DNA from: Candidatus Micrarchaeota archaeon | Lineage (GTDB): Archaea > Micrarchaeota > Micrarchaeia > Anstonellales > Bilamarchaeaceae | Length of the DNA: 64,000 bases | Assembly (NCBI GenBank): GCA_038046765.1 | Contig: JBBSVN010000012.1 | Span: forward strand, 36,044-100,043 | Reading direction: 5' to 3' | Shown: piece after piece, positions 7,454-56,623 of the stretch | How positions within the stretch are numbered: position 1 is the first letter of the stretch | Layout of the letters: every line of letters starts with the position of its first letter | Notes under the pieces: generated by a model | Database searches by the model: none | What the model was told of the DNA's origin: nothing | What the model saw: the letters and a program-made list of their open reading frames with translations, nothing else | Translations under genes and position numbers: made by a program

Positions 7454-7485
7454 AAATATACTCCACAATATTAATCTAAACAACA

Positions 7486-7493
7486 CTTTATAA
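7486..7493 (+). promoter_or_regulatory. Archaeal TATA box (tttataaa) about 35 bp upstream of the ATG at 7528, in a 75 bp divergent intergenic region.
   Basis: Sequence motif only. Confidence 0.3.
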
Positions 7494-7527
7494 ATTCTTC
7501 TTACCTTATTATAATTGGTGAGATTAA

Positions 7528-33020: not shown

Positions 33021-34379
33021 TTAAATCAGCCTTATTTCTTTATTTTCCTTATCAAGTTGCATTAAACTAACTGTTGCACCATTTTTAGTTGCTTTTTTTA
33101 TTGCAGGGTTTTGACACAGAACTTGCTTTAAGAAATTTAAAACTTCTGGATCAGAATGTACAATCACAATATGTCCCGTACTTTTAACACAATTAACAGA
33201 AGCAAGTGCATATTCAATGCTTCCAAGTGCTTCTTCGCTTAATTCTGCGTTTTTCAAACTAACCGCGAATAACTCGTTTAAATCTGCACCAAAGAACGTG
33301 CGGCCATTTGTTACATTGCCTAAATCTTTTGGATCGCTTAAAATTATCGCGTGAGCATACTGTTCTGCAAAAGTTTTTCCTGCAATTTTAGCGTGCATGA
33401 TCGCGATTCGCACTTCGGATGTGGTTTCTGAAACAAAATCAGATAATTCTCTTGTTTTAGAATAAGTAAGTCCTAAATCAGTTGTATTAAATCCGATTAC
33501 TCCCGCATATACTTTTATTTTTCTTTCTCTTACAATATCTAAATTAGCTAATACTTCTCTTTGATATTCTGTGTTATTGATAAATATGTTGGGGTGACCA
33601 GAGCCTTTTATGTGGATTCGATCTAATAACCTATCAATGCTTTGGCTTTTTCCGCGGTGTTTATGTTCGTCTTTTTTAACTAAGCATGCTCCGCAACCAA
33701 TGTGGCCAATAACAAAAATTTCGCCATTTTCCTTAAGTTTGTCTATTACTGCACGTACTTCATCAGTTACTGCATTTCCCGCAATCTGTACAGTTGCTAT
33801 GTGTTTACCCTCATAATGCCTAAGAGACGTAGCCTCACACCTGGAATCAGAACACATTAATACAACTGCGTCATACTCTTTAGGTGTTTTTACTAAAGTA
33901 CGTTCAAGTGCTCCTTTAGCTCCTGCAATTAAAATTTCTCTTGACGCTTTGATGTCAAGGAGTCCTTGTTTTGCTATTATTCTTTTTAAGTCATCTATAT
34001 AAAACGGATTTTTTCTGCTTTCTCTTACTGAATCTGGAATAAGTAATCTTTCACTTCGAGTAAAACTTCTTGGTCGTGCTACTTCTTTATCTGTTTTTCT
34101 TGGGTCTTCTCTATGCTCTACTCCTCTTAATTTTTGTAACGAAAGAATAATATTTTCTGCATCTTTTAATCTTTTTTTAGCCGTTTTGTCCTTTTTGTTT
34201 TGAATCAGTTTTTCCTTAATCTTTTCTATATTGGCAACATTGAATTTCCGATCTCCAAGAATTAGCGTAGCTTCAGGAAAATTCTGCTTATTTAAGTCTA
34301 AGCAAAAATCAATTAATTCCTGGTGAAGCATAGGATCGGTAATCTGAATATTTTTTAACTTCAAGTCCGGACACTTCAA
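33021..34379 (-). CDS. Beta-class carbonic anhydrase-like protein: an N-terminal ~130 aa extension, a catalytically intact beta-CA domain, and a degenerate second beta-CA-like domain.
   Basis: CSDSRC (Cys plus the Asp/Arg dyad), QIAGNAV, and VIGHIGCGA (His and Cys) give all three Zn ligands. The C-terminal half repeats the fold without ligands. Confidence 0.65.
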   Translation of the reverse strand: MKCPDLKLKNIQITDPMLHQELIDFCLDLNKQNFPEATLILGDRKFNVANIEKIKEKLIQNKKDKTAKKRLKDAENIILSLQKLRGVEHREDPRKTDKEVARPRSFTRSERLLIPDSVRESRKNPFYIDDLKRIIAKQGLLDIKASREILIAGAKGALERTLVKTPKEYDAVVLMCSDSRCEATSLRHYEGKHIATVQIAGNAVTDEVRAVIDKLKENGEIFVIGHIGCGACLVKKDEHKHRGKSQSIDRLLDRIHIKGSGHPNIFINNTEYQREVLANLDIVRERKIKVYAGVIGFNTTDLGLTYSKTRELSDFVSETTSEVRIAIMHAKIAGKTFAEQYAHAIILSDPKDLGNVTNGRTFFGADLNELFAVSLKNAELSEEALGSIEYALASVNCVKSTGHIVIVHSDPEVLNFLKQVLCQNPAIKKATKNGATVSLMQLDKENKEIRLI

Positions 34380-34428: not shown

Positions 34429-35448
34429 CTATGCTAGAATAAAAGTTTGGCCATTCATCTTGTTGAACTTCATCAGGGTAATTAGTTTTCCATTTTGGCT
34501 CTTTTCTTTTATTATTTTACTTTCAAGAATCTGTTTTTTTAATTCCTTAACTGTATCACTATCTGTATGAAGTATCATTATATGTGGTGAGTCCTTAACT
34601 CCATGAACCTTTAATAGTGCATCTTCTATTGCTGCAATTGATACTGTAGCTATTTTCTTACCAAAGTTACTCACGCATATAATTTCGTTTAAATTTCCGT
34701 CAAAGATTATTCTGGGGTTGTTTACTAAACCTAGGTCTAGTGGGTCGCTTAAAATAATTGTATGTGCATATGCTGCATTCAAATTTACTCCCTGGTTTTT
34801 AGCCTTTGTTAATCTGCTGCTTAAACTTCTTTTTAATCCGTTTATACTGTTGCTTGGTTTACCATCTTTTAGAAATCGTATTGGTTCAAGACTATTTGTA
34901 AAATCTGCAAGTACTGGTATTATTGCTGCTTTTTTAGATATTAAAATTTCGTTGTGTTTTAATTTTTCTACCTGGTTTATTGCATTTGCAGAGTATATAT
35001 CTTTTGCAAAACTATCCTTTTTACCAATTTCCACGTGACTAATTAAATTATCTATGCTGTTACTAATTCCTCGGTTATTGCTTTCCTGTGCTTTTAAATC
35101 ACATTCATAGCACATTAGCGATCCGCAGACAATTACTTCTCCATCTTGTTTTATTCTGATAAATCCGTTATCCAAATCATCTGTTACTATCTGCCCTGCA
35201 GTTTGTATGTTTAAAATTTTTTGTTCTAGGTAATCTGTTAGAATTGTTGGATCAGTGCGTGGTCCAGTTGATGAAACTAAAACTAAATCATATTCCGCCG
35301 GTTTAGCCAAGTTCGCTTTCTTTTGGGTTATTTGCCTTACAAATGCTGCGTTTCCTGCAATTAACAAATCAAGCGATTCTTTTACTAAAATTGGTTGCTG
35401 CGTTTGTACTTTCTTCATTACGACATCGAGTAATACCATCGAACGCAC
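34429..35448 (-). CDS. Beta-CA-like paralogue (duplicated domain) with a degenerate active site.
   Basis: Co-linear with the neighbouring gene (LIAGNAAF, QTAGQIVTD), but CxDSR is replaced by VSSTGPR and HxxCG by GSLMCYEC. The C-terminal half (AHTIILSDPLDLG...) is homologous to that of the neighbour. Confidence 0.55.
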   Translation of the reverse strand: MRSMVLLDVVMKKVQTQQPILVKESLDLLIAGNAAFVRQITQKKANLAKPAEYDLVLVSSTGPRTDPTILTDYLEQKILNIQTAGQIVTDDLDNGFIRIKQDGEVIVCGSLMCYECDLKAQESNNRGISNSIDNLISHVEIGKKDSFAKDIYSANAINQVEKLKHNEILISKKAAIIPVLADFTNSLEPIRFLKDGKPSNSINGLKRSLSSRLTKAKNQGVNLNAAYAHTIILSDPLDLGLVNNPRIIFDGNLNEIICVSNFGKKIATVSIAAIEDALLKVHGVKDSPHIMILHTDSDTVKELKKQILESKIIKEKSQNGKLITLMKFNKMNGQTFILA

Positions 35449-35540: not shown

Positions 35541-36083
35541 TTATTTTCTCATTTTCTTGGATTTTTCCTCTAAGATCATTCCCGCTTTAAGAAGTCCTGC
35601 CAGAAGTTGATACGGGTTAGGTGGGTTTCCAGGTACATTTACATCAACTGGTACAGTATCTTCAACTTTTCCGCTTCCAGCTAATGCATAACTACCTTGA
35701 TATGGAAAACCCGTAACTGCACCATCTCCTGCTGCGACAACTACGCGCGGGTCTGCCATCGCATCATAACTTTTCTCAAGTGCAAGTTTCATATTCATTG
35801 TAACTGGACCTGTAACAATAATTACATCTGCATGCCTTGGCGAGGCTACATAGTGGATTCCAAATCTTTCTGCATCTACACGCGGGTTCATCATCATCTG
35901 TTCTTCAAGTTCGACATCGTTTGGCGAACCAGCGTCAACCATTCTAACGTGTATTGACTGCGCAAAAGGGTTAAGACTGCGTTTTTTAAGTAGTTCTGCA
36001 ACCTCTCTAATATCTGGGTCATCTGAATTAGGATCTATACGGTCCGGATATTTTTCAAAAAGGAATTTGAATATTTCAAACAT
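35541..36083 (-). CDS. NuoB / [NiFe]-hydrogenase small-subunit homologue lacking all four [4Fe-4S] N2 cysteine ligands.
   Basis: Aligns with the NuoB core (RFG..ASPRxxDVxIVxG, VPVD..VPGxPP), but CC is replaced by SP, GSCA by GDGA and GCPP by GNPP. The protein has no Cys at all. Confidence 0.75.
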   Translation of the reverse strand: MFEIFKFLFEKYPDRIDPNSDDPDIREVAELLKKRSLNPFAQSIHVRMVDAGSPNDVELEEQMMMNPRVDAERFGIHYVASPRHADVIIVTGPVTMNMKLALEKSYDAMADPRVVVAAGDGAVTGFPYQGSYALAGSGKVEDTVPVDVNVPGNPPNPYQLLAGLLKAGMILEEKSKKMRK

Positions 36084-36092
36084 ATTTACACC

Positions 36093-37649
36093 TCACAAAT
36101 CAGTACCTGCGTAAGACATATTAAAGCTTTTATTTATAAGCGGGAAATCTGGCACAATATTTCCAGGAACTAAATTTTCCGCGCCACGCCAGTTACGAAA
36201 AGATGCTGTCCTGCATCTAAAACTTTTTATTGTTCCATTATCCATTAGTTCAATCATGAATGTACAAGAACCTCTTGGTGCCTCTGCCCATCCTAAGCTC
36301 CATACACTTTTACGCGATTTTGAAACTGGTACTGGTGCAAGAATCTCGCCATTAGGCATCTTGGCAATTACTGTCTTTATGATTTCAACTGCTTGTTTTA
36401 CTTCTGCAATTTTTACTAGGAACCTGCATAATACGTCTCCTCCCTCTTCCTTCTGTTCGCTAAACTTGACCTTATCATAAAATTCGTAAGGGAAGTATTT
36501 TCTTACATCGCAGCTATATCCTGCTGCACGAGCGACAGGTCCAACTAAAGATAATTTTTGCGCAACCTCTGTTGTAACTATTCCTGTTGAATAAACCCGA
36601 TCAAGATATGTTGAGTTTGTCAATGTAACTGTTTCAAGTGTGTTTAATCTATTGACAAAGTTGTCAAGTTCGCTAACTAAAACACTAATTTTAGTCTCAT
36701 CTAAGTCTGCTTTTACCCCTCCTGGTGTACAAACTCCCCCTAAGAACCTATGGCCAGTTATTTTATTATTAAGGCGCATCATATCCTCGCGCAAAACGGC
36801 GAATCTAGATGCTGCGAAATAAAATCCGACATCTGTTGGCATTCCGCCTAAATCCGATAAATGACTGTATATTCTTTCAAGTTCAGCTAAGATCACTCTT
36901 ATTGCCTGCGCTCGTTCTGGAACTTTTATATCTAGCGCTTTTTCTACCGCTGTACAATAGCCGATCATATTCGCAATTCGTTCATCTCCTGAAATCGATT
37001 CTATAAGTGGTATTGCTTCGGTTATATTTTTTCCTTCAACTAGTTTCTCAACCCCCCGATGAAGGTAGAACATTCTTGTTTCAAGTTTGTTTATTGATTC
37101 CCCGACCACGCTGAATCTAAAATGTCCTGGTTCGATTATACCTGCGTGAACTGGGCCAACTGGAATCTGGAATTCACCTTCGGCACCCGTCATCGGCATT
37201 TCGTAAACGTAATCTGCATTTTTACCCAATCTTTTCTTCTGACCTTCTATATTTTCTAATCCGCCATCAGGATGGAAAAGTATTGGACGTGAATCTGGAA
37301 TGTTATCAAATCTAAGTCCGCTTAAATCCTGCATTTTCCTCTCATCCCATACTGCTGCGTTAACAACTGCAGAAACTGCATAAAATTCCTTGCCTTCTGC
37401 ATATAATACTGCGAATGTTTCAAGAGCTGGCACACGAAAAACATATGATGCCTGAAAGTTTCCTTTTTCTAAATCACTTATAAATGAGCTATCGAATAAT
37501 GCATTCTCTTTAATCATTTTTTCACTTAAACCTGGCAAATCTTTGGAATTACATTTTATCCAGACTATTCCTGATTGTTCAACAGAAGAAATTTTTGCAT
37601 TAGCAGATGACTCAAGCTGTTTTAAGAATTTTTCTAATTTAGAATCCAT
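36093..37649 (-). CDS. NuoC-NuoD fusion / group-4 hydrogenase large-subunit homologue without NiFe-binding cysteines.
   Basis: GPVHAGIIEPGHFRF...LHRGVEKL is a NuoD/EchE-like core. The N-terminal CxxC position reads ANMIGYC, and the C-terminus ends NMSYAGTDL with no DPCxxC. Confidence 0.75.
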   Translation of the reverse strand: MDSKLEKFLKQLESSANAKISSVEQSGIVWIKCNSKDLPGLSEKMIKENALFDSSFISDLEKGNFQASYVFRVPALETFAVLYAEGKEFYAVSAVVNAAVWDERKMQDLSGLRFDNIPDSRPILFHPDGGLENIEGQKKRLGKNADYVYEMPMTGAEGEFQIPVGPVHAGIIEPGHFRFSVVGESINKLETRMFYLHRGVEKLVEGKNITEAIPLIESISGDERIANMIGYCTAVEKALDIKVPERAQAIRVILAELERIYSHLSDLGGMPTDVGFYFAASRFAVLREDMMRLNNKITGHRFLGGVCTPGGVKADLDETKISVLVSELDNFVNRLNTLETVTLTNSTYLDRVYSTGIVTTEVAQKLSLVGPVARAAGYSCDVRKYFPYEFYDKVKFSEQKEEGGDVLCRFLVKIAEVKQAVEIIKTVIAKMPNGEILAPVPVSKSRKSVWSLGWAEAPRGSCTFMIELMDNGTIKSFRCRTASFRNWRGAENLVPGNIVPDFPLINKSFNMSYAGTDL

Positions 37650-37651
37650 AT

Positions 37652-39124
37652 TTAAACACCCCCGATTAAACTACCTGCATCTTTTATTAAATTAAGAACT
37701 GGTGCTGGAGGGAACAATGCTAATGCTATTGCAAGAAGCAAAAGCGCAATCACTGAAAATGACATGTAAGGACTTACTTCTATATGTTTTGGCATTTTTT
37801 CCGGCTTATTACCAAAGACCATATCTGAAGCTTTGTAGAGGAAACTTGCAAATGCAATTACTGTAAATACGATTACAAAAAGAGCAACTAGGTATTGTCC
37901 CTTTGATAATGCGCCTCCTAGAAGTGCAATTTCAGAAAAGAACGTACCAAATGGGATACTTCCAGCCACTCCTAAAACAGCTAGTAAAAATAAAAGTCCA
38001 AAAACAGGTACTGCGCTTGCAGCTCCCTTTATATCTGGCATATTTTTAGTGCCATATGCATTTGTTATAATTCCACCTAAAAGAAATGCTAATGGTTTAG
38101 CTAAAGAATGAGCAAGCATATGGAATAATGCTGCAAAAATTGCTATTGGTCCACCAATTCCAGTAGCTAGTACAATAATTCCCATATTCTCTACGCTTGA
38201 ATATGCTAAAAGTCGCTTAAGGTTATCTTGTGCAAAAAGACGAAGCGCGCCTACAACTAGGGAAAGCACGCCAAATAGTATAAATAATCCTGACGCAAAA
38301 CCTGCAATTTCTGGTGACAAGATTACAATTCCATATACTCTTAATATTCCATAAAGGGCTATATTTAATATAAGTCCGGATAGTAAAGCACTAACTGGAG
38401 TTGGTGCCTGACTGTGCGCATCTGGAAGCCACACATGCAACGGTACAAGACCAACCTTTGTCCCGTATCCAACTAAAACGAATACGAATGCAAGTTTAAG
38501 GTATAGTGGGTTTATTTTGGTAATATCAAACGGTGTTCCGTAAACTGGGGTTTCTAAACCTCCCTGTGCAAATGCATAAAATAAAACAAGAATTCCAATA
38601 AATGCCAGTGTAAATCCAACAGAATTTATTGTAAAGTATTTCCATGCTGCTTCTATTGAAGCTTTGGTGTTGTAAAAACTTATCAAAAACACTGATGAGA
38701 GTGTTGTAAGTTCAACTGCTGCCCAAACGTGAATTGGGTTTGATGCTAAAAGTCCAGTTAGCATTGCAGCTAAAAACAGGGAAAGCTGTGCATAAAATCT
38801 TGCGAGCCTGTCTTCTTTAATTATTCCTTCTTCTACTTCATGGCGCATATATCCTACAGAGTAAATAAATACCAGTAGTGAAACAACTGATGTAATTCCT
38901 ATTAAAAATGCTGATAATGCATCCATTCTAAGTAGTTCTGAGAAATCTGAAATCGGTGCCCCGCTACTTATGAAAATTGATATTGAAAATAGTGCTGCAC
39001 CAACTGCTCCAAGAGCGCCTAAACATGCAACTAATTCTGCAAGTCGCGGGTGTTTACCTAAAAATACAGCAATTATTCCTGCAATTACCGGGAAAAGAAT
39101 AATTAATTCAAGCATAAATATCAC
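37652..39124 (-). CDS. NuoM/NuoN/HyfD/MrpD-like antiporter-type membrane subunit.
   Basis: About 14 TM helices with conserved PF00361-type motifs (WLPEAH-like HVWLPDAH). Confidence 0.75.
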   Translation of the reverse strand: MIFMLELIILFPVIAGIIAVFLGKHPRLAELVACLGALGAVGAALFSISIFISSGAPISDFSELLRMDALSAFLIGITSVVSLLVFIYSVGYMRHEVEEGIIKEDRLARFYAQLSLFLAAMLTGLLASNPIHVWAAVELTTLSSVFLISFYNTKASIEAAWKYFTINSVGFTLAFIGILVLFYAFAQGGLETPVYGTPFDITKINPLYLKLAFVFVLVGYGTKVGLVPLHVWLPDAHSQAPTPVSALLSGLILNIALYGILRVYGIVILSPEIAGFASGLFILFGVLSLVVGALRLFAQDNLKRLLAYSSVENMGIIVLATGIGGPIAIFAALFHMLAHSLAKPLAFLLGGIITNAYGTKNMPDIKGAASAVPVFGLLFLLAVLGVAGSIPFGTFFSEIALLGGALSKGQYLVALFVIVFTVIAFASFLYKASDMVFGNKPEKMPKHIEVSPYMSFSVIALLLLAIALALFPPAPVLNLIKDAGSLIGGV

Positions 39125-40797
39125 CTTTTTTCATTAAGTTCAGCAAGTTCTCCAGTGTCAACGGTTTTCGCAATACTCTGGATTTTAAGCGCTAAAACTA
39201 CTGATACAACTACCAATACCAATATATCAAAAAGCGTAATTGCTTCGGATATAAGCGGGATGTCCACACCAAGCGCAACTGGTAAAAGTACAATTCCGTT
39301 TTCCATTATCAAAAATCCTAACATCTGTAAAAGAATGTGCGTTTTTGTTGAAATAATTAAAAGACCTATTAAAATTATTGAAAGTGCAATTGGTAAAACT
39401 ATTCCTGCAGTCAGGCTTGAACCCACTAAAAATGATACGGAAATAAGTAACACTGAAATTACTAATGCTGTCGTAGTTGTAACTGGCGCATCGATAAATA
39501 ATGGGTCGATATCGATTAAGCTTCTTAATTTCACATTCGTGTGCTTTAGTACATCGGTTATTCCCTCTGGTGTGAGGTTCGTTTTATCAAGTAAATTCTC
39601 TCCTTTTGCCATCTGGTTAAAAATTCGATATATCAAAAGCGGTAAAATTATTACCTTTAAAATTACTGTAATGCCTAGTCTTAAATAGCTGTCAACTGAA
39701 CCTGTTTTAACTGCTATAAGTGCAAAAATTATTCCAAGTGCAACGTTTTGCAATAAATATATCTCTATTCTTCTTTTGAACGTCGCTCCAAAAAGGAAAT
39801 ATAAATTGCTTATTAGCATTACGCAAAGTAATATTGGGACTGTACCGTTTGCGTTTGGGTCTGGATTAATATGTATTAAAAATGCGAATACTGCCAAATT
39901 CAAGGCAAAGACAAGAAGCTCGGCAACTTTAAATAATCTGACCTTGACGCTAAATGATTCAACTATTGCTGTAATTACTCCCAAAACTAGTACTGTTGCT
40001 AAAATTGCGGCTGTTCGGGATATCGGGTCGCTAAATAATGCAAGCGGAAAAAATAAATTTGCAAAAAGCGTGAAAAATAAAAACATTTTTGAAGCTTGCG
40101 CCCATTCTATAAGTCCAAGGCTTGGGCCAGAATTTTCAAGAATCATTGCCTCGTGGACCATTGTTAGTTCTAGGTGTGTAGCTGGGTTATCAAAAGGAAG
40201 TCTGCCCATTTCAGCTAGCATCAATATAAATAATGCGGCAGCTGCTAAATAAAATGTTGGCGAACTAAGAATTCCGAACCAGTTGTTTGGTCCATTTGCA
40301 GTGAATATCATTAAGTTGGTACTTCCTGAAAATAATACTAAAAATAAAATTGCTGCAAAAAGGACTGGTTCAATTAAAACAGAATATAATGATTCCCTGC
40401 TTGAGCCTAATCCTCCAAATGCGCTAGCTGCATCCAGGCCAGATAAGATTACTACAAATCTGCCTATTGCAAAAAGATAAACGAATATTATTATGTCTGC
40501 TACAAATGGCGGAACTGCGGTAAATATTGGTAAAAGTAATGTTGCAGCTACTGTTGAAACAAAAATAAAAATCGGTGTCGCTAAAAAGATCCATGAACTA
40601 ATATCGCTTCTAACTGTTCCTTTACTAAATAATTTTACAAGGTCGAAATATGGTTGTATTATTGAAGATCCGCTCCTACCCTGACAATATGCTTTGACTT
40701 TTCTTATGACTCCAACTAGGAGCGGTGAAAGCGCAAAAACAAATAAAATCTGTACAATCATTCCTAAAACTGAAGATATCATTGTCATAAATATCAC
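39121..40797 (-). CDS. NuoH/HyfC-like membrane subunit fused to an additional C-terminal TM domain (HyfE/NuoK-like).
   Basis: RKVKAYCQGRSGSSIIQPYFDLVKLFSKG matches the NuoH RxxAxxQxRxGP...QPxADxxKL motif. The 558 aa length is about HyfC plus HyfE. Confidence 0.7.
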   Translation of the reverse strand: MIFMTMISSVLGMIVQILFVFALSPLLVGVIRKVKAYCQGRSGSSIIQPYFDLVKLFSKGTVRSDISSWIFLATPIFIFVSTVAATLLLPIFTAVPPFVADIIIFVYLFAIGRFVVILSGLDAASAFGGLGSSRESLYSVLIEPVLFAAILFLVLFSGSTNLMIFTANGPNNWFGILSSPTFYLAAAALFILMLAEMGRLPFDNPATHLELTMVHEAMILENSGPSLGLIEWAQASKMFLFFTLFANLFFPLALFSDPISRTAAILATVLVLGVITAIVESFSVKVRLFKVAELLVFALNLAVFAFLIHINPDPNANGTVPILLCVMLISNLYFLFGATFKRRIEIYLLQNVALGIIFALIAVKTGSVDSYLRLGITVILKVIILPLLIYRIFNQMAKGENLLDKTNLTPEGITDVLKHTNVKLRSLIDIDPLFIDAPVTTTTALVISVLLISVSFLVGSSLTAGIVLPIALSIILIGLLIISTKTHILLQMLGFLIMENGIVLLPVALGVDIPLISEAITLFDILVLVVVSVVLALKIQSIAKTVDTGELAELNEKR

Positions 40798-42773
40798 ACC
40801 ATAACTGCGTAAATAAGAATTGCAACCATGACAAATAGCATGTACATCAAGTAATGTAATAATTTTCCTGTCTGGAATATTGAAGACCTGGACGAAATTG
40901 CTCTAAATCCATTTTCTATTGGCTTATAAATAACTGCCTCGAAAAATGCAGGCCCATACGCATTCTTTTCTGTATTAAGCGGATTAAGCCATCTGTTTAA
41001 TGCCCTTTGAATTGGCATTGAAATTCCTATTGGGGTATATTCCATTTTTGATTCTACTTTATGTATTCCGCAATCCCATGTAACCCTAGTAACATCATTT
41101 GCTTTTGTAAATGCTCGAATAATCCAGAGGAATGCAAAAACTGCAATTGTCGCCCCTAATAAAACCAATACGATTCCAAATGAAGGAAGGGTAAATACAA
41201 CTTTTGATGTTGCGCTCATATCGCTAATATTTAACTTTGCAAACATCGGGCTAATTATCGAAAATATTATTGTTGGGAAAACTCCCGCTATAATACACGC
41301 AATTACTAGTATGATCATTCCTATGTGCATTAACGAACCTACTTCTTTAGCGTGTTCAACATGTTCGCTTCTAGGTAATCCTAAAAATACCATTCCAAAT
41401 GCCTTAACAAAAGCTGCTAATGCCAGTGCACTTGTAAATGCGAGGACTAAAACAACTGCACCAAATAAGAATGCAATTAATTTAGGAAGTGCTAATCCTG
41501 ACAAAAGTGCCTGGAACATAGTCCATTCGCTTGCAAAACCATTTAATGGTGGCAAAGCAGAAATTGCTGCTACGCCGACAAAGAACAAAATTGCAACTAC
41601 TGGTAGTTTCTTTATCAACCCACCCATTGCGTTCATGTCTTTAGTGTGTGTTGCGTAAGCAACTGCTCCTGCTCCTGTAAATAAAAGACTTTTGAAAAGC
41701 GCGTGATTTAATGAATGGTAAAGTGCTGCAAATAATGCTAATGCTGCTAATGCGTCCATGTTTAAACTATGAAATAATACTGCAGCTCCAATTCCTAAGA
41801 AGATAATTCCTATGTTTTCTACACTTGAATAAGCGAGAAGTCGTTTTAAATCTTTTTGAATTATCGCATATAATACTCCGAATACGCAGGACACTGCTGC
41901 TAATAATAATAATAAAATTCCCCACCAGAAATGGAATGGAGTTGCACCTAAAAAGTCAAATAATACCCGAATTATTCCGTAAATTGCTACTTTTAACATT
42001 ACTGCGCTCATTAAAGCGGATATATTACTTGGTGCCTGGGGGTGTGCTTCTGGTAACCATGTATGAAATGGCATTAAACCAGCTTTTGATGTAAACGCGA
42101 TTACTGCCAACACAAAAATGATACTTGCTAACATGGGTGTTAAACTAATTGTTCTAAATCCGGCAAAGTCCATGTTTCCTGAAAATCCAGTGAAAACCAG
42201 GAACATTAAAATTAATGCAACTGCACCGATATGCGTTATTAGTAAGTATATAAAACCAGCATCTTTTGTTTTTGCTTCCTTGCTTTCATATGTTACAAGG
42301 AAAAATGAGCTAAGTGCCATTAGTTCCCAAAAAATTAAAAAAAGAAGACCGTTTTGAGAAGTTACAACTGCAATCATAGACAAAATAAAAATATTATAAA
42401 GAAAACCAAATAACGCGTTACTATATCCTTTTTCCTGGTACTCTTTCATGTAATCTATTGAATATATCGAAACTGCTAGTCCAACTAAAGAAATTAATAA
42501 TATGAAAAATCCAGAAAGCGCGTCAATACTAAAAGTTAAATTTCCAATCGGGGCAAAATTTCCCAAGTTTAATGGTGCAATATTTGTGCCCATCATTACC
42601 ATAAGCCCAGCTATTACTCCAATAATGCAACCTAAGATTGCAAATAAAAATGAAAGTTGCCTGCATAAATTTTTCCATTTGGATAAAACAAGCGACACTA
42701 AAGAACCAAATAAAAATAAAACAAAAAGGCCTAATAAACTCTGAGCGGTAAAAAGTTCAATCAAATTAACCAT
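40794..42773 (-). CDS. NuoL/HyfB/MrpA-like antiporter-type large membrane subunit.
   Basis: 659 aa polytopic protein with HTWLPEAHPQAP, a PF00361 core. It is the first gene of the operon. Confidence 0.75.
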   Translation of the reverse strand: MVNLIELFTAQSLLGLFVLFLFGSLVSLVLSKWKNLCRQLSFLFAILGCIIGVIAGLMVMMGTNIAPLNLGNFAPIGNLTFSIDALSGFFILLISLVGLAVSIYSIDYMKEYQEKGYSNALFGFLYNIFILSMIAVVTSQNGLLFLIFWELMALSSFFLVTYESKEAKTKDAGFIYLLITHIGAVALILMFLVFTGFSGNMDFAGFRTISLTPMLASIIFVLAVIAFTSKAGLMPFHTWLPEAHPQAPSNISALMSAVMLKVAIYGIIRVLFDFLGATPFHFWWGILLLLLAAVSCVFGVLYAIIQKDLKRLLAYSSVENIGIIFLGIGAAVLFHSLNMDALAALALFAALYHSLNHALFKSLLFTGAGAVAYATHTKDMNAMGGLIKKLPVVAILFFVGVAAISALPPLNGFASEWTMFQALLSGLALPKLIAFLFGAVVLVLAFTSALALAAFVKAFGMVFLGLPRSEHVEHAKEVGSLMHIGMIILVIACIIAGVFPTIIFSIISPMFAKLNISDMSATSKVVFTLPSFGIVLVLLGATIAVFAFLWIIRAFTKANDVTRVTWDCGIHKVESKMEYTPIGISMPIQRALNRWLNPLNTEKNAYGPAFFEAVIYKPIENGFRAISSRSSIFQTGKLLHYLMYMLFVMVAILIYAVMV

Positions 42774-43141
42774 ATTCTAACCTACAGTTGGATTTTTTTG
42801 AATAATACCTAATACTTAGAAAGGTAAGTTTTTAAATTAAACACTTGGGCGTTTCGAGCTAAAAATTAGATTTTTTATATCTCGTTTATTCTAAAATCAA
42901 TCAAAATCAAGATACGGTATCCAAACTAAATATATTTGGAACTGCTTATAAATACTTCGCTGATAAATCGCCACTAACTACAATTAAAAAGACAATGCAT
43001 CAAAGTTTTATAAAATCGATAAACGAATTGAAAATAAAAATTAAAATTTGTGTATCATCAATTTAACATAGGTTTATAAACACTTTTAGACAGAAATTAT
43101 CATATATCTTTCAAACAAGTAAAATAAAACAAGGCAAGAAA

Positions 43142-44377
43142 ATGTCTGTAGATTTAAGAAGAATTAGTCACAAACTTAAATTAAGCGAAATGGATATAAG
43201 TGCAATCCCAAGTCTGCGTAGATCTACTACCCCGTTATCTATTCCTCAGTCTGCTTTTGAAATATTTCGTGGCTTTAGCCTATTTAATGAAAGGATTAGG
43301 CCAACTAAACTTCTAGGTGTACGTTTTGAACGAGTTGCTGGTCAGGCCTTTGACAAAAAGGATTTGCATTCCAGGGAAGCTATAAGAAGAAATTTATTAA
43401 GCATAAAACAAAAAGGTGCATTTTTAATTTTAGGTCATGGTGGGGAAATTGGTTGTGGTGCAATTAAGGGAAAGCAAAATCCAAATCCATCCCAACCTCA
43501 ATTAGTAAAAGATTTAGTTGAGCATATATCCGAAAGAGTCATAGGATTAGATGATTTGCAGTATGCTGCTTCTATAGAAAATGCTTTATTTCAAGGCATA
43601 AAAATTTTACACGATCCTGAATTTGCAGCAATAATTAAAGAAAAAGATATTACTGTTGTTTATGCTGTTTGCAATGGTGATGCCAACTATTCCTATAATG
43701 CCTTAAATAAAGGGCTTAATGAAAATGCACTTCTATTTAAGCACCCAAAGTTACAGCAATTAAGAGAACAGTTCCAGCATGGGTTAGCTAAAGTTTCAGA
43801 ATTTGGCATAGATCTTAAGAAACAGTATGCTTATGCTGCATTTGGTTATGATCCAGCTGAACTTGCATCTGTAATAGATAAATATAGCACTGAAATCGAA
43901 CTAGGGGGGGTATGCTGTGTTGATTCAAGACTTCCACCACATACTGGTGTTTACTATTTACTTCGAATTGAACCAAATGAAGCCTTTTCAGGAACATTTC
44001 ATCATTCAATTAGGCCTGATGGTGTTTATCAACCAATAATTTCTAAATTAGCGGCTGGGAGTATAGAATTTGGTCTTCAAAATGTTTGTGGAATAAATAG
44101 TCTAAATCCCGATAATCCTGGAAATGGGCATTTAGTTATGCTTGCAACTAGTCTAGCTAATGCAAGAAAAATGAAAGAAACTGTACTTCAATTCTCTGGT
44201 ACTGCTCGCGCAACAAAAGATGGAAAAACAATTTCACTACTTAGTTTTGATGGAAAAGAGTTAGTAATGCAAAATGATTCTCTTGGTTTTGATTTGGTTG
44301 CATCTTATGATTCTCCCGCTCAAATACTTACGCGACCTCCATCTGAATTTGCAGAACTTATGGATCAACGAGCCTAG
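43142..44377 (+). CDS. Hypothetical protein with weak beta-CA-like features, divergently transcribed from the complex-I-like operon.
   Basis: RFERVAGQAF (RNAGN-like) and LILGHGGEIGCGAIKG (GH..CGA with a 3-aa insertion). The first Cys ligand is absent. Confidence 0.35.
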   Translation: MSVDLRRISHKLKLSEMDISAIPSLRRSTTPLSIPQSAFEIFRGFSLFNERIRPTKLLGVRFERVAGQAFDKKDLHSREAIRRNLLSIKQKGAFLILGHGGEIGCGAIKGKQNPNPSQPQLVKDLVEHISERVIGLDDLQYAASIENALFQGIKILHDPEFAAIIKEKDITVVYAVCNGDANYSYNALNKGLNENALLFKHPKLQQLREQFQHGLAKVSEFGIDLKKQYAYAAFGYDPAELASVIDKYSTEIELGGVCCVDSRLPPHTGVYYLLRIEPNEAFSGTFHHSIRPDGVYQPIISKLAAGSIEFGLQNVCGINSLNPDNPGNGHLVMLATSLANARKMKETVLQFSGTARATKDGKTISLLSFDGKELVMQNDSLGFDLVASYDSPAQILTRPPSEFAELMDQRA

Positions 44378-44386
44378 AATAAGTAA

Positions 44387-45583
44387 TTATAATCCAAAAT
44401 TCTTCTTCATAATCTGCGAAACGATTTTTGGTTCTAAGCCTAATCTGATTAAAGTCGTATGTCCTCTTTGACCTTTTGTACTAGGTGTTGTCATAATTAA
44501 ACCTAAGGTTTCTAAATCTTTTAAGTATTCATGATACCATCTAACGCTTCTAGCTCTCTTCTTTAATTTCTTACAAATTAGTTCGTATTCTTCGTAAACT
44601 TCGCCAGACATTAAGAAGTTTTCTTCTCCAACATCAAGCCTAGAATACTTTGTACCATTTAAAATTAAATCTGAAATTGCCAGTAAAAGCATCTGGTGGT
44701 TTTCTGGTAAAGTTGCAAGTGTTTCCTGTGCAATATCTAATTCTACCTTTCGTCTTGCTGATTCAACTTCCTCATCAGTTACTTTTGTTTTATTATTTTG
44801 TTCAGCAGATTCTCCTGCTTTAAGGAGTATTTTTAACGCATATCTAGCATCCCCGCTTTCTTGCGCTGTTATTGCTGCTGCCAGATTTATTGCAGATTGC
44901 TGTACTACATTATCCTTAAATGCTTTTTCAGCGCGCTGTGCTAAAATCTTTTTTAATTGCTCGCTAGTATAAGGAGGAAAAACTATTTCAGTTTCGTTTA
45001 AACTGCTTTTACTTCTTTGGTCTAAACCCTGCTTAAACGTAAGTTTGTTTGAAATTCCGATTAGCGATACGCCTCCTTTACGAAGTTCGTCATTTACCCT
45101 AGTTAATGTGTAAACCATGTCGTCAAGATCTTTTATTATATCAATTTCATCAAGTACAACTATCATTACGATTCCTTTATCGCAAATCTCAATAAGTTTC
45201 TCGTATAAAAAGGTTAATCCAAATCCTGCTTTTTCAAGTTCTGGTACAAACTGCTTTAGGATTTTTTGCATTACCCTATATCTTGAATTATATATTCTGC
45301 AATTGACATAACTAATATACGCGTTATTTCTTGAAGAGCCAAATTTTTCCATCACATGTTTTACTGTTGCTGTTTTTCCGCAACCTGTTTTGCCGTATAT
45401 AAAAATGTTTTTTGATCTTTGGCCTTTAATCGCGGGACTAACTAGGGACATTATTTCCTTTATTTCTTTTCCACGAAACGGCAGTGCTTTTGGTACGAAG
45501 TGTGGTGAAAGTATCGATGCATCCTTAAATACTTTACTCTCTGTTAAAAATTCGTCAAAGGAGTCTTCGGTCATATTTTTCAC
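44387..45583 (-). CDS. cdc6: Orc1/Cdc6 replication initiator (AAA+ domain plus winged helix).
   Basis: Walker A GKTGCGKT, Walker B VVLDEIDII, sensor motifs and a C-terminal wH. Confidence 0.85.
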   Translation of the reverse strand: MKNMTEDSFDEFLTESKVFKDASILSPHFVPKALPFRGKEIKEIMSLVSPAIKGQRSKNIFIYGKTGCGKTATVKHVMEKFGSSRNNAYISYVNCRIYNSRYRVMQKILKQFVPELEKAGFGLTFLYEKLIEICDKGIVMIVVLDEIDIIKDLDDMVYTLTRVNDELRKGGVSLIGISNKLTFKQGLDQRSKSSLNETEIVFPPYTSEQLKKILAQRAEKAFKDNVVQQSAINLAAAITAQESGDARYALKILLKAGESAEQNNKTKVTDEEVESARRKVELDIAQETLATLPENHQMLLLAISDLILNGTKYSRLDVGEENFLMSGEVYEEYELICKKLKKRARSVRWYHEYLKDLETLGLIMTTPSTKGQRGHTTLIRLGLEPKIVSQIMKKNFGL

Positions 45584-51862: not shown

Positions 51863-54800
51863 TTAAACAAAATCCGCAAGTCCAAGTTGTCTGCTTTTTT
51901 CATCTTCGAAAATACTTCGTATTTCCTTTTTAACTAGAAGTAGTCTTTGCTTTAAATAATCCGGTAATTCGTAATCTGCAATAATCTTTTCTGAAATTTC
52001 TAAGTATTTTTCAATTCCTCCCTTATTTATTGTTAAAATAAGATTTCCTCCACAGAAATTGCATTTGCCCGATAACGGGACGCGTCTTAAACTTTCATTA
52101 CAACTAGTGCATCTAAATGTTTGCCTTGAAAATGATCTTAAATTACCATATAAATCTGGTATAAAATGGCTAAGGATTAATCTTTCAGCAGCATTCTTCG
52201 CATCTACTGCCCTTATTTTTCCCTGTAATTTAAATTGCGTGGTTATCTTATCAGCCATATTATCAAATGTTACATAAGCCGTTCGTAAATTTCCTTTATC
52301 TATATATCCGCCCGTATGCGTAAGCTGAATTTCAAATTGCTCGGGGGTTCCAAGTAAGTCCTTTACTGTTTTTAATTTTACTTCTGTTGGAGGTGTATAC
52401 TTTAGTGTTGCCTCATAAAATTCTTTTGGATAAGAATTCACTACTTCAATACAGTGCGCTTCATCATCAACTTCTTTTGGGTCTAACTGAGGTGTTAAAA
52501 CTAATGGCGCGTCCATTGTCCCCCCTCTTCGCTCAGTTAAATAATGCCTTGAAAAATTAATCAGGGTGTCCATAAGAAGCATGACTGAGTCTTCATCACC
52601 ATCACATTGATAAGTAGTTATTCCAGAACAAATAAGACTGTGGTACTTTTCTACCGTTACATTGTAAACAAATTTATCTTGGTTTTTGATCGTTTTTCTC
52701 TCAATAACCTGATCAATAAAAGTGTCTCCTAAATATTCTGTCCTAGATCCTTTTCTTTTTGTTTCCCACTTCTCCAAAAGTTTTTGCGCTTTTTCTTGCT
52801 TTAAACCAGAAAATCCTATGTTATCAATAAATTTTTTAGCTTCACTAGAATAAATTCTTATCTTATATGAATGAATATATTTGGGTCTGCCATAAAACTT
52901 TATAATCAGAGAACTTTTTACGTATCTATCTTCTTCATAAATCGAATGCTTAATTCCAAAGAAATTTAGCAAAATGGAAACTCCATCTATCAGTTCCTTA
53001 TTTATAGAAGTTACATTCACCTCCAGGGTATTGCCTAAAGAACAAGAACCATCTCCCGTGAAGTAACCTTTTAGCAGTGCAATCACTTTTTTATTTGGCA
53101 AAGAATAGACAAAATCAGGTATTTTTTTAGTTTTTGCATTTCTACCTATTTTTAACTTTTCAAAGAGTTCGTAAATATATCTTGAACAAATTGTTATATG
53201 TGTTTTATTTACATGAGGTTTAATTCCAAAAACTTTCTCAATTTTTTCTTTTATTATATCTACTGCCCATTCTTTGGTAGCTGTCAAAGAAACCTGATAA
53301 CAATCTATCTGCTTATTTTTAGTAAACCCCTCCGCTAAATAAAATCCGATTAAATAGAAGAAATCCTCATCAAGCTTTATTGTTGGCTTTAACAGAACCT
53401 TATCCCTCTTACTACCTAATATATATTTTTTACTCGCCAGTATGTCTGCTCTAAATTCTTTTACCAATTCCAACGGATAAGATTTTCTATATATATAATT
53501 AGTGAAAGTTTTGTAATTTAATCCAAAACTTCTACTTATTTGAGATAATTCTCCCTCTTCATTGAATAATTTCTCATCTGTTCTTATCATTGCATCTGTA
53601 ATATTCAAACTAGAAATAAGTTCCATGTCTTCCCTATCTATAATTTCCCTTTGCAAATTCCAAGGAATTATTAGTTCTTCAACTTCATTCGCGCTTACTT
53701 TTTCTCCTTTTGAATTCGGAAATTTATGGTCTGGCGTTACCGTTATTCTTCTGCCAGATTTTGTTTTTAACTTTACTAAATTTTCTGGTGCAATATGTTT
53801 TGAAACATGCGTAATATTACATAATTCAAATTTTTTCATTTTCTTGTTCCAAGCATATGTCTTTACTCCTTCTACTAGTTTATATTGAGTCCCAAAATCA
53901 TCTATTTCTGTTTTTCCGACTAAATTACTTTCTACAAAATCCATTATTTTCGTAAGTTCTAGTGATCCGTTTCGCTCGACCAAAATTTTTTCTTTTCCAT
54001 CAAAACAATTTCTCCTTCGCGCTGATATCAAATAAGGATGAGCATAAGATAAATTTGCCTTTGTAAAACCTACAATTCTGCAAAGAACTGCCGCGCTAGT
54101 GTGTGGCGAAAGACAAGCAGTTAGTTGTCCTATTAAGTCCTGTTTTGTTAATGCATTATAAAACGGCGCAAGCCCGTAAACGTTTACTAATAAATCATCG
54201 ATAAATTTTGCAGCCTGTAAGAAATATTCTCCATTCGCTTCTGGTATTACAATGTCCTGTATTTTAAGTGAAACAAGTTGGTTTTCGTTAGTTAATTCAT
54301 TTCCATAATAATCTTTCAAATAGCCTAAACTTCTTAGTTTTGCAATACTAACCTGTGCTTCACTTGGTTTAAAATGAGTTAAAGGGACGTTACTGGCATC
54401 AAAGCGCATTGTTCCATCACGAAATACATAAACCCCATATTTCGCCCTTAAAAATCCTTTTTCTAAAAGTTCGGGCGTACGCTCTAAATTAGATAACCCC
54501 TTTATTCCCTTTACATCCTCAACGCTTATGTCTAGTTTTTTCTTTATTGAATCATAAAGTTCGATCATATCTATGGGTTTTTTTTCAAAGCATACTGTTT
54601 CCTTATCACAGTGTATTTTCATGTTAACTGGGTTGCCGCATACAACGCATTTTTTTTCAATAATTGTTTCGCCCTTACAAATTTCGCATGTAGATAAAAA
54701 TGTAAGTTTTTTACAACTCGTACATCTTCTGTTTACAAGTTCAAGGTTAACTGTTCGTTCATCCCTACCACGAAGAGTTTTGTATATTTTTGTTATGCTT

Positions 54801-56623
54801 CTGTTTTTTTGTGATCCTGTCGGGAATAGAACGTTTGGTGAGCCATCCATCTTTCTTTCTTTTCCCTTTTCAGGCCTTCCCATTCTTGCGCCAATATAAG
54901 ATGGTGATTTAATTCTCATCGTTATACCGCTGGTTTTAGATAAAATTTCCATAACGAGGCCGCTTGGGCTAATCGTAATTGCATCATCAAATGTTATCTG
55001 ATTTTCACTAGTTTTTATTATTCCAAGACTAGCGAGTATCGCATATCCATATTCTTTCTCAACTATTATTTTGTTATCCACTACACGGTGTTCTATAAGC
55101 AAGTCTTCTAATATTGGCTTTGCGTCAAGGTTTTCAAAAACTATTTGTGTTATATTTTCATTGTCTTTATCTACTCTTGCCTTTTTACATTCTAGATAAA
55201 ACATTTGTAATTGTTCTATGGTAATTTCATTCCACTCGTAAGTATAATCTGGGTGAAGGGGTAATTTATGTGCTAGACAAAATTCAAAAGCAGACTTGGC
55301 ATCAAATATGCTTGGCATATTAATCCCTATTGCTTCGCATTCTTTTAGGAACCATTCTACGCACCAGCTCGAGGGCATAAGTGGCATATTCGCCTTAAGA
55401 AAATCACCATAAGGAACTAACATGTCCCCAAGAGAAAGAATCTCTGCAACATCTTTGTTTATTGCATATGCCATTTCAACTGTTTTTACTTTTACCACAT
55501 CTCCATTTTTCATTTTTACTATTGGCGGTTCCATTTCTTCATACCCAGTTACTACACATCCTTTTCCTGGATATTCTATTTTCATGTGTGTCCCATATGC
55601 TAAAAAATTATCCAGGATAATCATTGTTGCTGGATGGACATTTTTTGCCATTAAGCTGTTTGTTTTGCTTTTTCCATAGCGCAACTTGAATCCGCCTTTT
55701 CTAGAAGGATAAGAAAATACTGGTCTGCCGGCAACTAAACCATCAAGATAAGTTTCATCCTTTTTAAGGTTCTTTTCTTCTTTATTGTCCTTTTTGAGTT
55801 TGATTAGTTTTTCTAAAAAATCCCATCCAAGTTTTAGTTTTTTTGTATACTTGAAAACTTTTGCTGCTTTTTGCGCAATTCCCTCGCATATAACTAACGG
55901 AGTTCCTCCTCGAATTCTGTTTGTTTCAACTCCTGGGACATTTCTAAATGCGCTAACTTCTATTTCTTCAGTAGGATCGCCATCTATGCAAACCGGGCAG
56001 TTTTTAAGTATGTGTCTTATATCTTCTTCGCTTGGTTTATACTGCAAGTGTGCAACTCGTGATTCGTACATATTTATTTCTTCAAGATATCTTTCAATCT
56101 GAGTATCTGTTGCCCTATAATCCGCAAGCTTTAATACTCGCCTTGCAATATCTGCTAAAACAACGCTTAATGCAACTGCTGTGCCTCCTGCGCTTCTAAT
56201 TGGTCCGGAGTAATAAACTGCGACAAAGTCGCTTCCGTCTGGATTACTTTTTATGCGAACTTTCGCAATTCCTTCGGTAGGCGCAACCAAAACCCCTTCA
56301 GTTAATATTCCTAGACCTGTTCGTACTGCCTGCTCGATTAATTCTTCAGGTGTTCCGCGGATTATTTCTCCAGCAGCTATTTTTCTAGCTATCTCAAAAG
56401 AAATATCCTCTCTTGCCATTCCGTTTTTTTCCATATTTCGGATTGTTTCGGCAACTCCCTTTGGTCCGACAATATTTTCTACTCTTGCTGCTACGTCCTT
56501 AGCAATTTTTACTTCAACTTCACGTTCAGGATCAAAACCTTTCTTACGGGCTTCGCTGGCGTAAGCGTAAGAACGTTGAAGTTCGTTTTTTAACATTTCA
56601 AAATAAGCTTCTATTTCGGACAT
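51863..56623 (-). CDS. DNA polymerase II (PolD) large subunit DP2, containing an intein.
   Basis: DP2 N-terminus MSEIEAYFEMLKNELQ, Zn-finger clusters (CTSCKK..CEICKG..CVVCGN), the conserved RRRN|CDGDEDS motif interrupted by the intein, and C-terminal CTSC...CNFCGG. Confidence 0.9.
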   Translation of the reverse strand: MSEIEAYFEMLKNELQRSYAYASEARKKGFDPEREVEVKIAKDVAARVENIVGPKGVAETIRNMEKNGMAREDISFEIARKIAAGEIIRGTPEELIEQAVRTGLGILTEGVLVAPTEGIAKVRIKSNPDGSDFVAVYYSGPIRSAGGTAVALSVVLADIARRVLKLADYRATDTQIERYLEEINMYESRVAHLQYKPSEEDIRHILKNCPVCIDGDPTEEIEVSAFRNVPGVETNRIRGGTPLVICEGIAQKAAKVFKYTKKLKLGWDFLEKLIKLKKDNKEEKNLKKDETYLDGLVAGRPVFSYPSRKGGFKLRYGKSKTNSLMAKNVHPATMIILDNFLAYGTHMKIEYPGKGCVVTGYEEMEPPIVKMKNGDVVKVKTVEMAYAINKDVAEILSLGDMLVPYGDFLKANMPLMPSSWCVEWFLKECEAIGINMPSIFDAKSAFEFCLAHKLPLHPDYTYEWNEITIEQLQMFYLECKKARVDKDNENITQIVFENLDAKPILEDLLIEHRVVDNKIIVEKEYGYAILASLGIIKTSENQITFDDAITISPSGLVMEILSKTSGITMRIKSPSYIGARMGRPEKGKERKMDGSPNVLFPTGSQKNRSITKIYKTLRGRDERTVNLELVNRRCTSCKKLTFLSTCEICKGETIIEKKCVVCGNPVNMKIHCDKETVCFEKKPIDMIELYDSIKKKLDISVEDVKGIKGLSNLERTPELLEKGFLRAKYGVYVFRDGTMRFDASNVPLTHFKPSEAQVSIAKLRSLGYLKDYYGNELTNENQLVSLKIQDIVIPEANGEYFLQAAKFIDDLLVNVYGLAPFYNALTKQDLIGQLTACLSPHTSAAVLCRIVGFTKANLSYAHPYLISARRRNCFDGKEKILVERNGSLELTKIMDFVESNLVGKTEIDDFGTQYKLVEGVKTYAWNKKMKKFELCNITHVSKHIAPENLVKLKTKSGRRITVTPDHKFPNSKGEKVSANEVEELIIPWNLQREIIDREDMELISSLNITDAMIRTDEKLFNEEGELSQISRSFGLNYKTFTNYIYRKSYPLELVKEFRADILASKKYILGSKRDKVLLKPTIKLDEDFFYLIGFYLAEGFTKNKQIDCYQVSLTATKEWAVDIIKEKIEKVFGIKPHVNKTHITICSRYIYELFEKLKIGRNAKTKKIPDFVYSLPNKKVIALLKGYFTGDGSCSLGNTLEVNVTSINKELIDGVSILLNFFGIKHSIYEEDRYVKSSLIIKFYGRPKYIHSYKIRIYSSEAKKFIDNIGFSGLKQEKAQKLLEKWETKRKGSRTEYLGDTFIDQVIERKTIKNQDKFVYNVTVEKYHSLICSGITTYQCDGDEDSVMLLMDTLINFSRHYLTERRGGTMDAPLVLTPQLDPKEVDDEAHCIEVVNSYPKEFYEATLKYTPPTEVKLKTVKDLLGTPEQFEIQLTHTGGYIDKGNLRTAYVTFDNMADKITTQFKLQGKIRAVDAKNAAERLILSHFIPDLYGNLRSFSRQTFRCTSCNESLRRVPLSGKCNFCGGNLILTINKGGIEKYLEISEKIIADYELPDYLKQRLLLVKKEIRSIFEDEKSRQLGLADFV
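52607..54007 (-). mobile_element. Intein with a LAGLIDADG homing endonuclease (467 aa, DP2 residues 873-1339). C-terminal residue is Gln; +1 extein residue is Cys.
   Basis: Starts CFDGKEKILV immediately after extein ...ISARRRN. LAGLIDADG blocks LIGFYLAEGF and LLKGYFTGDGSCS. Ends ...GITTYQ before CDGDEDS. Confidence 0.8.

Follow-up and report, generated by a model that had tools for sequence, protein, structure and literature searches.

A Micrarchaeota-specific Ehr/Hyq complex without ligands for a NiFe site or an iron-sulfur cluster, very probably retained in a non-redox role

A five-gene operon of the Ehr/Hyq type was found in a stretch of 64,000 nucleotides from a Candidatus Micrarchaeota archaeon (assembly GCA_038046765.1, contig JBBSVN010000012.1, positions 36,044 to 100,043), referred to here as the window. 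The operon occupies positions 35541-42773 of the window on the minus strand, with the genes for the small and the large subunit coming last. Its first gene, ehrA (40794..42773, minus strand), codes for a HyfB- or NuoL-like antiporter-like subunit of 659 aa, with matches to PF00361, PF00662 and NF005086 ('hydrogenase 4 subunit B', 643 bits). It is followed by ehrBC (39121..40797, minus), in which a NuoH/HyfC-like part (residues ~1-310, PF00146 at 15-308) is fused to a HyfE-like part (~440-558, with NF008556 'hydrogenase 4 membrane subunit' at residues 439-555), and by ehrD (37652..39124, minus), coding for a second antiporter-like subunit of 490 aa, which is HyfF- or NuoM/N-like (PF00361; NF005044 'hydrogenase 4 subunit F', 369 bits). 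The last two genes are ehrL (36093..37649, minus), coding for a large subunit of 518 aa of the NuoC+NuoD or HycE type (PF00346, PF00374, PF00329), and ehrS (35541..36083, minus), coding for a small subunit of 180 aa similar to NuoB, HycG and MbhJ (PF01058 at 1.7e-20).

A sequence-only reading of this DNA had claimed that the NuoB-like protein contains no Cys at all and that each of the four ligands of the N2 cluster is substituted. Translation of ehrS did give a protein without Cys, whose sequence agrees in full (100% identity) with that of an NCBI entry, 'MAG: hydrogenase [Candidatus Micrarchaeota archaeon]'. The protein aligns to MbhJ of Pyrococcus furiosus (6cfw_J, E 2e-22) and to HycG of Escherichia coli (7z0s_G, E 4e-22), and in these residue-by-residue alignments GSPNDVELE, GDGA and PGNPP of the window protein stand opposite GSCNGCDIE, GaC and PGCPP of MbhJ/HycG. 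The four [4Fe-4S] ligand positions are taken by P54, V57, G121 and N153, and all four ligands are indeed lost. The former CxxC lies in GSPNDVE (residues 52-58; 35910..35930), the former third ligand in GDGA (residues 119-122; 35718..35729) and the former fourth ligand in PGNPP (residues 151-155; 35619..35633), all on the minus strand. The substitutions had been described as CC to SP, C to D and C to N. The last of these is correct, but the register of the first two was off by one, as S53 and D120 are neighbours of the ligand positions and are also present in Cys-containing relatives. Displaced cysteines were considered and rejected, since the protein has none and both alignments are unambiguous around the four sites.

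When one genome per species was scanned, 20 loci from Micrarchaeota were obtained, along with one more distant match from Thermoproteota. In 21 orthologues of the small subunit S53, N55, D56, V57, E58, D120 and G121 are invariant, and the replacements are shared, in the form GS[PS]NDVE, GDGA and GNPP, by about 110 of the 120 nearest protein clusters. The named members of these clusters are all Micrarchaeota, with the exception of one record labelled Thaumarchaeota. All four Cys are retained in seven clusters that are more distant, and the nearest Cys-containing relatives show 45-51% identity in the small subunit. A protein of 180 aa with zero Cys is by itself unremarkable, but the same replacements of four ligands in ~110 of 120 clusters are far beyond chance. 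Complete absence of Cys is a minority state (7 of 121 rows); more than 80% of the Micrarchaeota orthologues have a non-ligand Cys at column 123 (GDGACTG), where the window protein has Val (35715-35717). Since this Cys is a lone one it cannot hold a cluster. An AlphaFold 2 (AF2) model of the small subunit, with a predicted local confidence (pLDDT) of 84, was superposed most closely on MbhJ, with a root-mean-square deviation of 2.3 A over 134 columns. Low confidence in the model was limited to the N-terminus and to the former cluster loop (pLDDT <50 at residues 55-58 and 64-67).

Like the small subunit, the large subunit has lost its metal ligands. It aligns to HycE (7z0s_E) over 434 residues (E 2.5e-61), and the alignment agrees with the earlier statement that this NuoCD-like protein has neither the N-terminal nor the C-terminal NiFe motif. 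Opposite drvCGiCgfaH of HycE stands ESISGDERIAN (residues 217-227; 36969..37001, minus strand), in which the Cys are replaced by S220 and E223 and the His by N227. Opposite DPCYSCTD stands NMSYAGTDL, in which the former C-terminal motif NMSYAG (residues 510-515; 36105..36122, minus) has S512 and G515 in place of Cys. Here, too, the replacements are kept among orthologues, with S220 and E223 each found in 20 of 21, D222 and N227 in 21 of 21, and N510, S512 and G515 in 21, 20 and 21 of 21, respectively. The protein stops three residues past NMSYAG, with no C-terminal extension for a maturation protease, and the Tyr that acts as quinone ligand in complex I (LDYV motif) aligns to G221.

No match to a ferredoxin subunit of the NuoI/HycF type was found among the operon genes of the 20 loci (Pfam and NCBIfam for the window), and a CxxCxxCxxxC motif was not found in any open reading frame (ORF) of the 64-kb window. 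In the part of the window taken in by the scan no hyp maturation genes were seen. When an alternative conserved set of Cys was sought in all five proteins, only isolated conserved columns came up: the one at 123 in the small subunit, 42 and 462 in the large subunit, and 493 and 568 in the HyfB-like subunit. The complex is without the capacity for a NiFe site or an iron-sulfur cluster, and we infer that it cannot carry electrons.

The five genes were present in identical order in all 20 Micrarchaeota species genomes. The ratio of nonsynonymous to synonymous substitution rates (dN/dS), calculated by the method of Nei and Gojobori for pairs with unsaturated dS (0.44-1.1), was 0.07-0.12 for the small subunit, 0.11-0.21 for the large subunit and 0.09-0.24 for the three membrane subunits, indicating strong purifying selection across the whole operon (0.07-0.24). 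With ORFs intact in 20 species-level genomes, pseudogene status was rejected on the grounds of operon integrity and dN/dS. The membrane arm is preserved in the residues that matter in complex I. Both antiporter-like subunits retain the charged channel residues of the complex I type, namely the Glu of transmembrane helix (TM) 5 and the Lys of TM7 and TM12; in the ehrA-type subunit E150, K230, K261, H357 and K361 are invariant (18 orthologues), as are E138, K223, H339 and K343 in the ehrD-type subunit (21 sequences). Almost invariant among orthologues are also the NuoH-like loop PFDNPATHLELTMVHEAM and a cap loop of the large subunit, VGPVHAGIIEPGHFRF; these are the loops which in complex I join the cap to the membrane arm, and in our reading VGPVHAGIIEPGHFRF corresponds by position to the complex I beta1-beta2 loop.

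The NuoH-HyfE fusion, a protein of 536-571 aa with a poorly conserved linker of ~130 residues, was found in 19 of the 20 Micrarchaeota loci; in bacterial Hyq/Ehr operons the two parts are separate genes. At the remaining locus (L004, 5287-6950) the NuoH-HyfE gene is spread over 2 or 3 ORFs, due to either a frameshift or an assembly error. This is the sole broken operon gene across the 20 loci.

Because the operon is conserved, dN/dS is 0.07-0.24, and both the replacement residues and the channel residues are kept, the complex is maintained by selection. It is neither a hydrogenase nor a pseudogene. The suggestion, made before these data were at hand, that a conserved fold without its ligands points to selection for a non-redox role is supported by the intact ORFs, the dN/dS values, the conserved replacements, the fold and the lack of a ferredoxin-like subunit. 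As judged from these sequence comparisons, the complex is very probably functional and non-redox, and its cap may serve as a scaffold or as a conformational coupling element.

The direction of the change can be read from the Cys-keeping sister clade, which has the same operon without NuoI and without the NiFe ligands, and argues that the change ran from Ehr to cluster-less Ehr. The complex is a Micrarchaeota-specific variant of Ehr/Hyq in which, beyond the loss of NiFe, the last redox cofactor is also gone. A second Cys-free match led to an alphaproteobacterial HyqI subclade (one record being Mesorhizobium sp.), where about 28 of the 120 nearest HyqI clusters are without 2-4 of the ligands, showing the patterns SSEN, SAES, CADD, DTDN and others. 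Examples of such HyqI/EhrS genes lie at 10001-10522 of locus L035 and at 7199-7720 of locus L036. The cluster-less HyqI proteins are 75-80% identical to relatives that have all four Cys, and their hyqR-BCEFGI operons are intact. Downstream of these operons lies an NMT1-type ATP-binding cassette (ABC) transporter, a member of the nitrate/sulfonate/bicarbonate family. In a neighbour-joining tree the cluster-less HyqI were nested among the bacterial proteins that contain Cys and lay at a great distance from the archaeal clade. The replacements in the two lineages are partly convergent, with G to D before the second ligand and N, S or D at the fourth. On the evidence of alignment and tree, the cluster ligands have been lost at least twice, independently, which argues against an essential part for the cluster in the core function of Ehr. 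The alphaproteobacterial losses contradict the published statement that the four Cys are kept in every HyqI orthologue (PMC3357923).

The operon is flanked by genes for two-domain proteins resembling beta-carbonic anhydrases (beta-CAs). Downstream lie a 452-aa protein (33021..34379, minus; PF00484 at 1.3e-7), which has the site C176-x-D178-x-R180, H226 and C229, and a degenerate paralogue of 339 aa (34429..35448, minus), 31% identical to the former, in which the zinc ligands have been lost. The ligand columns of this copy read S, G, R, S and C; in its closest relatives elsewhere CSDAR and GHxxCG are preserved. A permuted paralogue of 411 aa is found on the other side of the operon (43142..44377, plus strand), with H99 and C105 in the first domain and C259-x-D261-x-R263 in an insertion of the second domain, and these five residues are invariant in 12 sequences. 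When the 452-aa protein was modelled (AF2) from residue 125, a pLDDT of 95.4 was obtained, the top Foldseek match of the model was the tandem beta-CA of Porphyridium (1ddz), and the remainder of the 50 listed matches were beta-CAs. The neighbours are thus predicted to have a beta-CA fold, with a zinc site that the 452-aa protein appears to have intact and the 411-aa protein in permuted form, and that the 339-aa protein lacks. Three types can be told apart among these proteins: the canonical one, one with an insertion of ~28 residues between the His and Cys ligands, and the permuted one with CxDxR in the second domain. All but one of 28 members (27) have the Cys-Asp-Arg-His-Cys site. The family is rare. 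A direct homologue search with the 452-aa protein gave three matches only, and an exhaustive profile search, from which the size of the family was taken, found 230 representatives at E <1e-3 among 1.84 billion, with ~80 full-length members. Members named so far come only from Micrarchaeota (loci L004-L021 and L028-L033).

Several other features of the window were recorded. Between the operon and the divergent 411-aa CA-like gene lies an AT-rich intergenic region of 368 bp (42774-43141), and a Cdc6/Orc1 gene (44387-45583) comes after the CA-like gene; there may be a replication origin near 42774-45583. A syntenic block of eRF1 / CA-like / Ehr / CA-like / Cdc6 or Lon is seen in many related loci. 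The gene for the large subunit of DNA polymerase D (DP2; 51863-56623, minus) has an intein with a LAGLIDADG homing-endonuclease domain inside it, and a 723-aa protein encoded at 864-3035 (plus) has a eukaryotic-type Ser/Thr protein kinase domain (PF00069, 4e-27). Together with the exact match of the small subunit in NCBI, the Cdc6/Orc1 gene and the PolD subunits mark the organism as a DPANN archaeon belonging to the Micrarchaeota.

CA-like genes were found within ~3.5 kb of the Ehr operon in 16 of the 20 loci, in 1-3 copies, of three types, on either side and in either orientation. This adjacency is moderate evidence and suggests, without proving, a functional link of the complex to gradient-coupled CO2/bicarbonate chemistry. 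A number of observations weigh against such a link. Four of the 20 Ehr loci have no CA-like gene within 10 kb downstream and ~3 kb upstream, and the reverse was also seen: on metagenome contigs CA-like genes stand beside eRF1 or Cdc6 without an Ehr gene, and at locus L032 (and similarly at L028) there is no Ehr gene within 10 kb on either side of the CA-like genes. The occurrence of CA-like genes without Ehr lowers our confidence in Ehr-CA coupling. Furthermore, eRF1, Lon and Cdc6 adjoin the operon about as often as the CA-like genes do, so that their proximity could in large part be a matter of conserved synteny. In the window, the 92-nt gap that separates the small-subunit gene from the nearest CA-like gene contains an oligo-T run and a TATA-like box. 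Separate transcription is therefore possible, and we do not claim that the operon shares a transcript with the CA-like genes downstream of it. No CA gene adjoins the cluster-less Hyq operons of bacteria. No membrane helix was found in the CA-like proteins, in which the maximum 19-residue hydropathy is 0.9-1.45; they match PF00484 or nothing, and none matches PF10070 of DabA. Membership of the neighbours in the DabA family was rejected for want of both a PF10070 match and a TM segment.

The explanation that we put forward, and to which we give an even chance of being right, is that the cofactor-free Ehr works as a conformational machine linked to an ion gradient. Ions would move through the two antiporter-like subunits, and the NuoH-like subunit would couple their movement to the cofactor-free cap, which would act as a gate or docking module and not as a redox catalyst. 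That ion translocation has been retained is likely, given the conserved channel residues. The soluble two-domain beta-CA-like proteins are the partner that we would favour, docking on the cap or on the membrane arm, a tentative proposal, itself rather unlikely, that rests on gene adjacency. If they do dock there, the gradient might withdraw the proton from the reaction CO2 + H2O = HCO3- + H+, or drive it in, as in DabAB and CupA/B, and the former redox-coupling machinery would handle the proton of CO2 hydration. The whole would then be a gradient-driven vectorial CA, or an ion pump linked to bicarbonate dehydration, on a cofactor-free chassis of the complex I/hydrogenase type, an idea that we regard as speculative and on balance rather doubtful.

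It could be argued that the complex is still a redox enzyme, either an 'endo-hydrogenase' of the Hyq type or an Ehr in which a cofactor held by ligands other than Cys accepts electrons from a partner encoded elsewhere, for instance a soluble group 3b hydrogenase or a formate dehydrogenase. Database names ('hydrogenase', 'MbhJ', 'formate hydrogenlyase', 'Ni,Fe-hydrogenase III small subunit') speak for it, genetics ties the alphaproteobacterial Hyq to H2 recycling (PMC2650096, PMC3357923), and an electron-transfer role has been assumed for Ehr (PMC6349859, PMC10432482). Nonetheless we consider it very improbable, since two of the four ligand positions are Val and Gly, which are unable to bind metal, the Cys conserved in HyqG (C258, C491 and C497; PMC3357923) are all replaced in Micrarchaeota, there is neither a NuoI-like subunit nor a ferredoxin gene in the window, and Gly has taken the place of the quinone-binding Tyr of complex I. 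Even harder to credit is a decaying relic in which the loss of ligands is an early stage of decay. The genomes of DPANN archaea are reduced and one NuoH-HyfE gene is split, as such decay might lead one to expect, but the gene order kept in 20 species, the dN/dS values given above and the persistence of the replacements in more than 100 clusters with a mutual identity of only 55-82% speak clearly against it.

The main rival is a stand-alone, Mrp-like antiporter exchanging H+ for Na+ or K+, in which the cap is kept for assembly or gating and the CA-like neighbours are unrelated. The intact channel residues would suit it, as would the lack of a partner enzyme gene inside the operon, and most of what was held against CA coupling can be counted in its favour: Ehr and CA-like genes each occur without the other, the synteny with eRF1, Cdc6 and Lon is equally conserved, separate promoters are plausible, and the bacterial cluster-less Hyq is without CA. 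True Mrp antiporters, however, are capless and have MrpB/C/E/F/G, which are missing here, and it is in the cap that conservation is highest, the lowest dN/dS being that of the small subunit. The invariance of the membrane-facing cap loops goes beyond what a passive plug would need, and the CA-like genes stay adjacent even as their side, strand and paralogue type are rearranged. We see the Mrp-like antiporter as possible but rather unlikely, and retain the gradient-linked conformational machine as the working explanation.

Complex I, the membrane-bound hydrogenases and their relatives are all thought to pump ions by means of redox chemistry at the NuoB-NuoD-NuoH junction, through a mechanism that is debated. 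A cofactor-free complex whose junction loops, NuoH-like subunit and antiporter-like subunits are under selection shows that the chassis is useful without electrons, and gives structural studies and reconstitution a pared-down natural system in which to examine how coupling works. Ehr occurs in nitrifiers, Geobacter, bacteria of the candidate phyla radiation (CPR) and rhizobia, and has been discussed as an electron-transfer device. As the cluster was lost twice, in Micrarchaeota and in the alphaproteobacterial HyqI, the electron-transfer view of Ehr needs re-examination. The names 'hydrogenase', 'MbhJ' and 'formate hydrogenlyase' are wrong for the Micrarchaeota family and unfit for inferring H2 metabolism in DPANN. 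If coupling to CA-like proteins were true, the coupling apparatus of complex I would drive, or be driven by, non-redox chemistry, and it would form part of a new energy-coupled inorganic-carbon system of archaea, one that arose independently of DAB and NDH-1MS.

Among known systems the closest are the ehrABCDLS operon of Geobacter (PMC7894505) and the alphaproteobacterial hyqRBCEFGI or 'endo-hydrogenase' (PMC3357923, PMC2650096). Previous studies described Ehr as marked by the loss of the NiFe ligands, and its role was called unknown or presumed to be electron transfer (PMC6349859, PMC7304191, PMC10284858, PMC10432482). The Micrarchaeota complex shares with these systems the order B-C-E-F-G-I (ehrA-B-C-D-L-S), with the C and E subunits fused, and the set of NuoL-like, NuoH-like, HyfE-like, NuoM-like, NuoC+D fusion and NuoB-like subunits. 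It also shares a large subunit homologous to group 4 with neither NiFe CxxC, and the lack of a ferredoxin-like subunit. It differs in having none of the four cluster ligands of the small subunit, in the columns of HyqG C258, C491 and C497, which hold A/P/T/S, I/V and L/M, in having no gene for the HyqR regulator, and in its archaeal (DPANN) lineage. The neighbourhood is different as well, with beta-CA-like genes in Micrarchaeota and the NMT1-type ABC transporter or nothing conserved in bacteria.

The best sequence and structure matches for both cap subunits are to group 4 [NiFe] hydrogenases, such as the formate hydrogenlyases Hyc/Hyf of E. coli and the membrane-bound hydrogenase (MBH) of P. 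furiosus, which also have NuoH-like and antiporter-like membrane subunits of the HyfB/C/E/F type (PF00146, and PF00361 twice). Unlike those enzymes, the Micrarchaeota complex is without RxCGxCxxxH, without DPCxxCxxH/R, without the Cys of the proximal [4Fe-4S] cluster and without a HycF/MbhN/EchF subunit. With complex I it has in common a homologous cap and membrane arm of the same fold and the conserved TM5 Glu, TM7 Lys and TM12 Lys; it is without the N2 cluster, NuoI, NuoA/J/K/N and the NADH module, and the quinone-ligand Tyr has become Gly. The same three channel residues recall the subunits of the MrpA/D type in Mrp antiporters; there is, however, no MrpB, C, E, F or G among the five operon genes, and a peripheral NuoB/D cap is present.

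For the CA-like neighbours, Porphyridium purpureum CA (1ddz) offers a similar arrangement, with two beta-CA-like domains per chain and a Cys-Asp-Arg ... His-x-x-Cys site, but the identity is only 12-20% and the second domain of the neighbours is degenerate. Structures of DAB1 and DAB2 revealed an antiporter-like subunit that drives a beta-CA-like enzyme (10.64898/2026.05.01.722082, 10.64898/2026.03.13.711513), and in the cyanobacterial NDH-1MS the CA-like modules CupA/B are carried on a complex I chassis (PMC6981117). The likeness, a complex I-type antiporter-like subunit beside a zinc enzyme of the beta-CA fold or a CA-like module, extends to a possible mechanism only. DAB lacks a NuoB/D/H cap and makes do with one antiporter-like subunit, the Micrarchaeota neighbours are neither DabA nor CupA/B, and NDH-1MS is redox-driven, which the Micrarchaeota complex cannot be. 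Earlier discussion of the family was not found in two Micrarchaeota papers (PMC8561730, PMC12892359), nor was any earlier mention found in a literature search of limited reach, so that a prior note is possible. What appears to be new in comparison with all of these systems is a clade-wide, selected and cofactor-free Ehr, a second loss of the cluster ligands in rhizobial Hyq, and the association of the operon with a rare family of beta-CA-like proteins.

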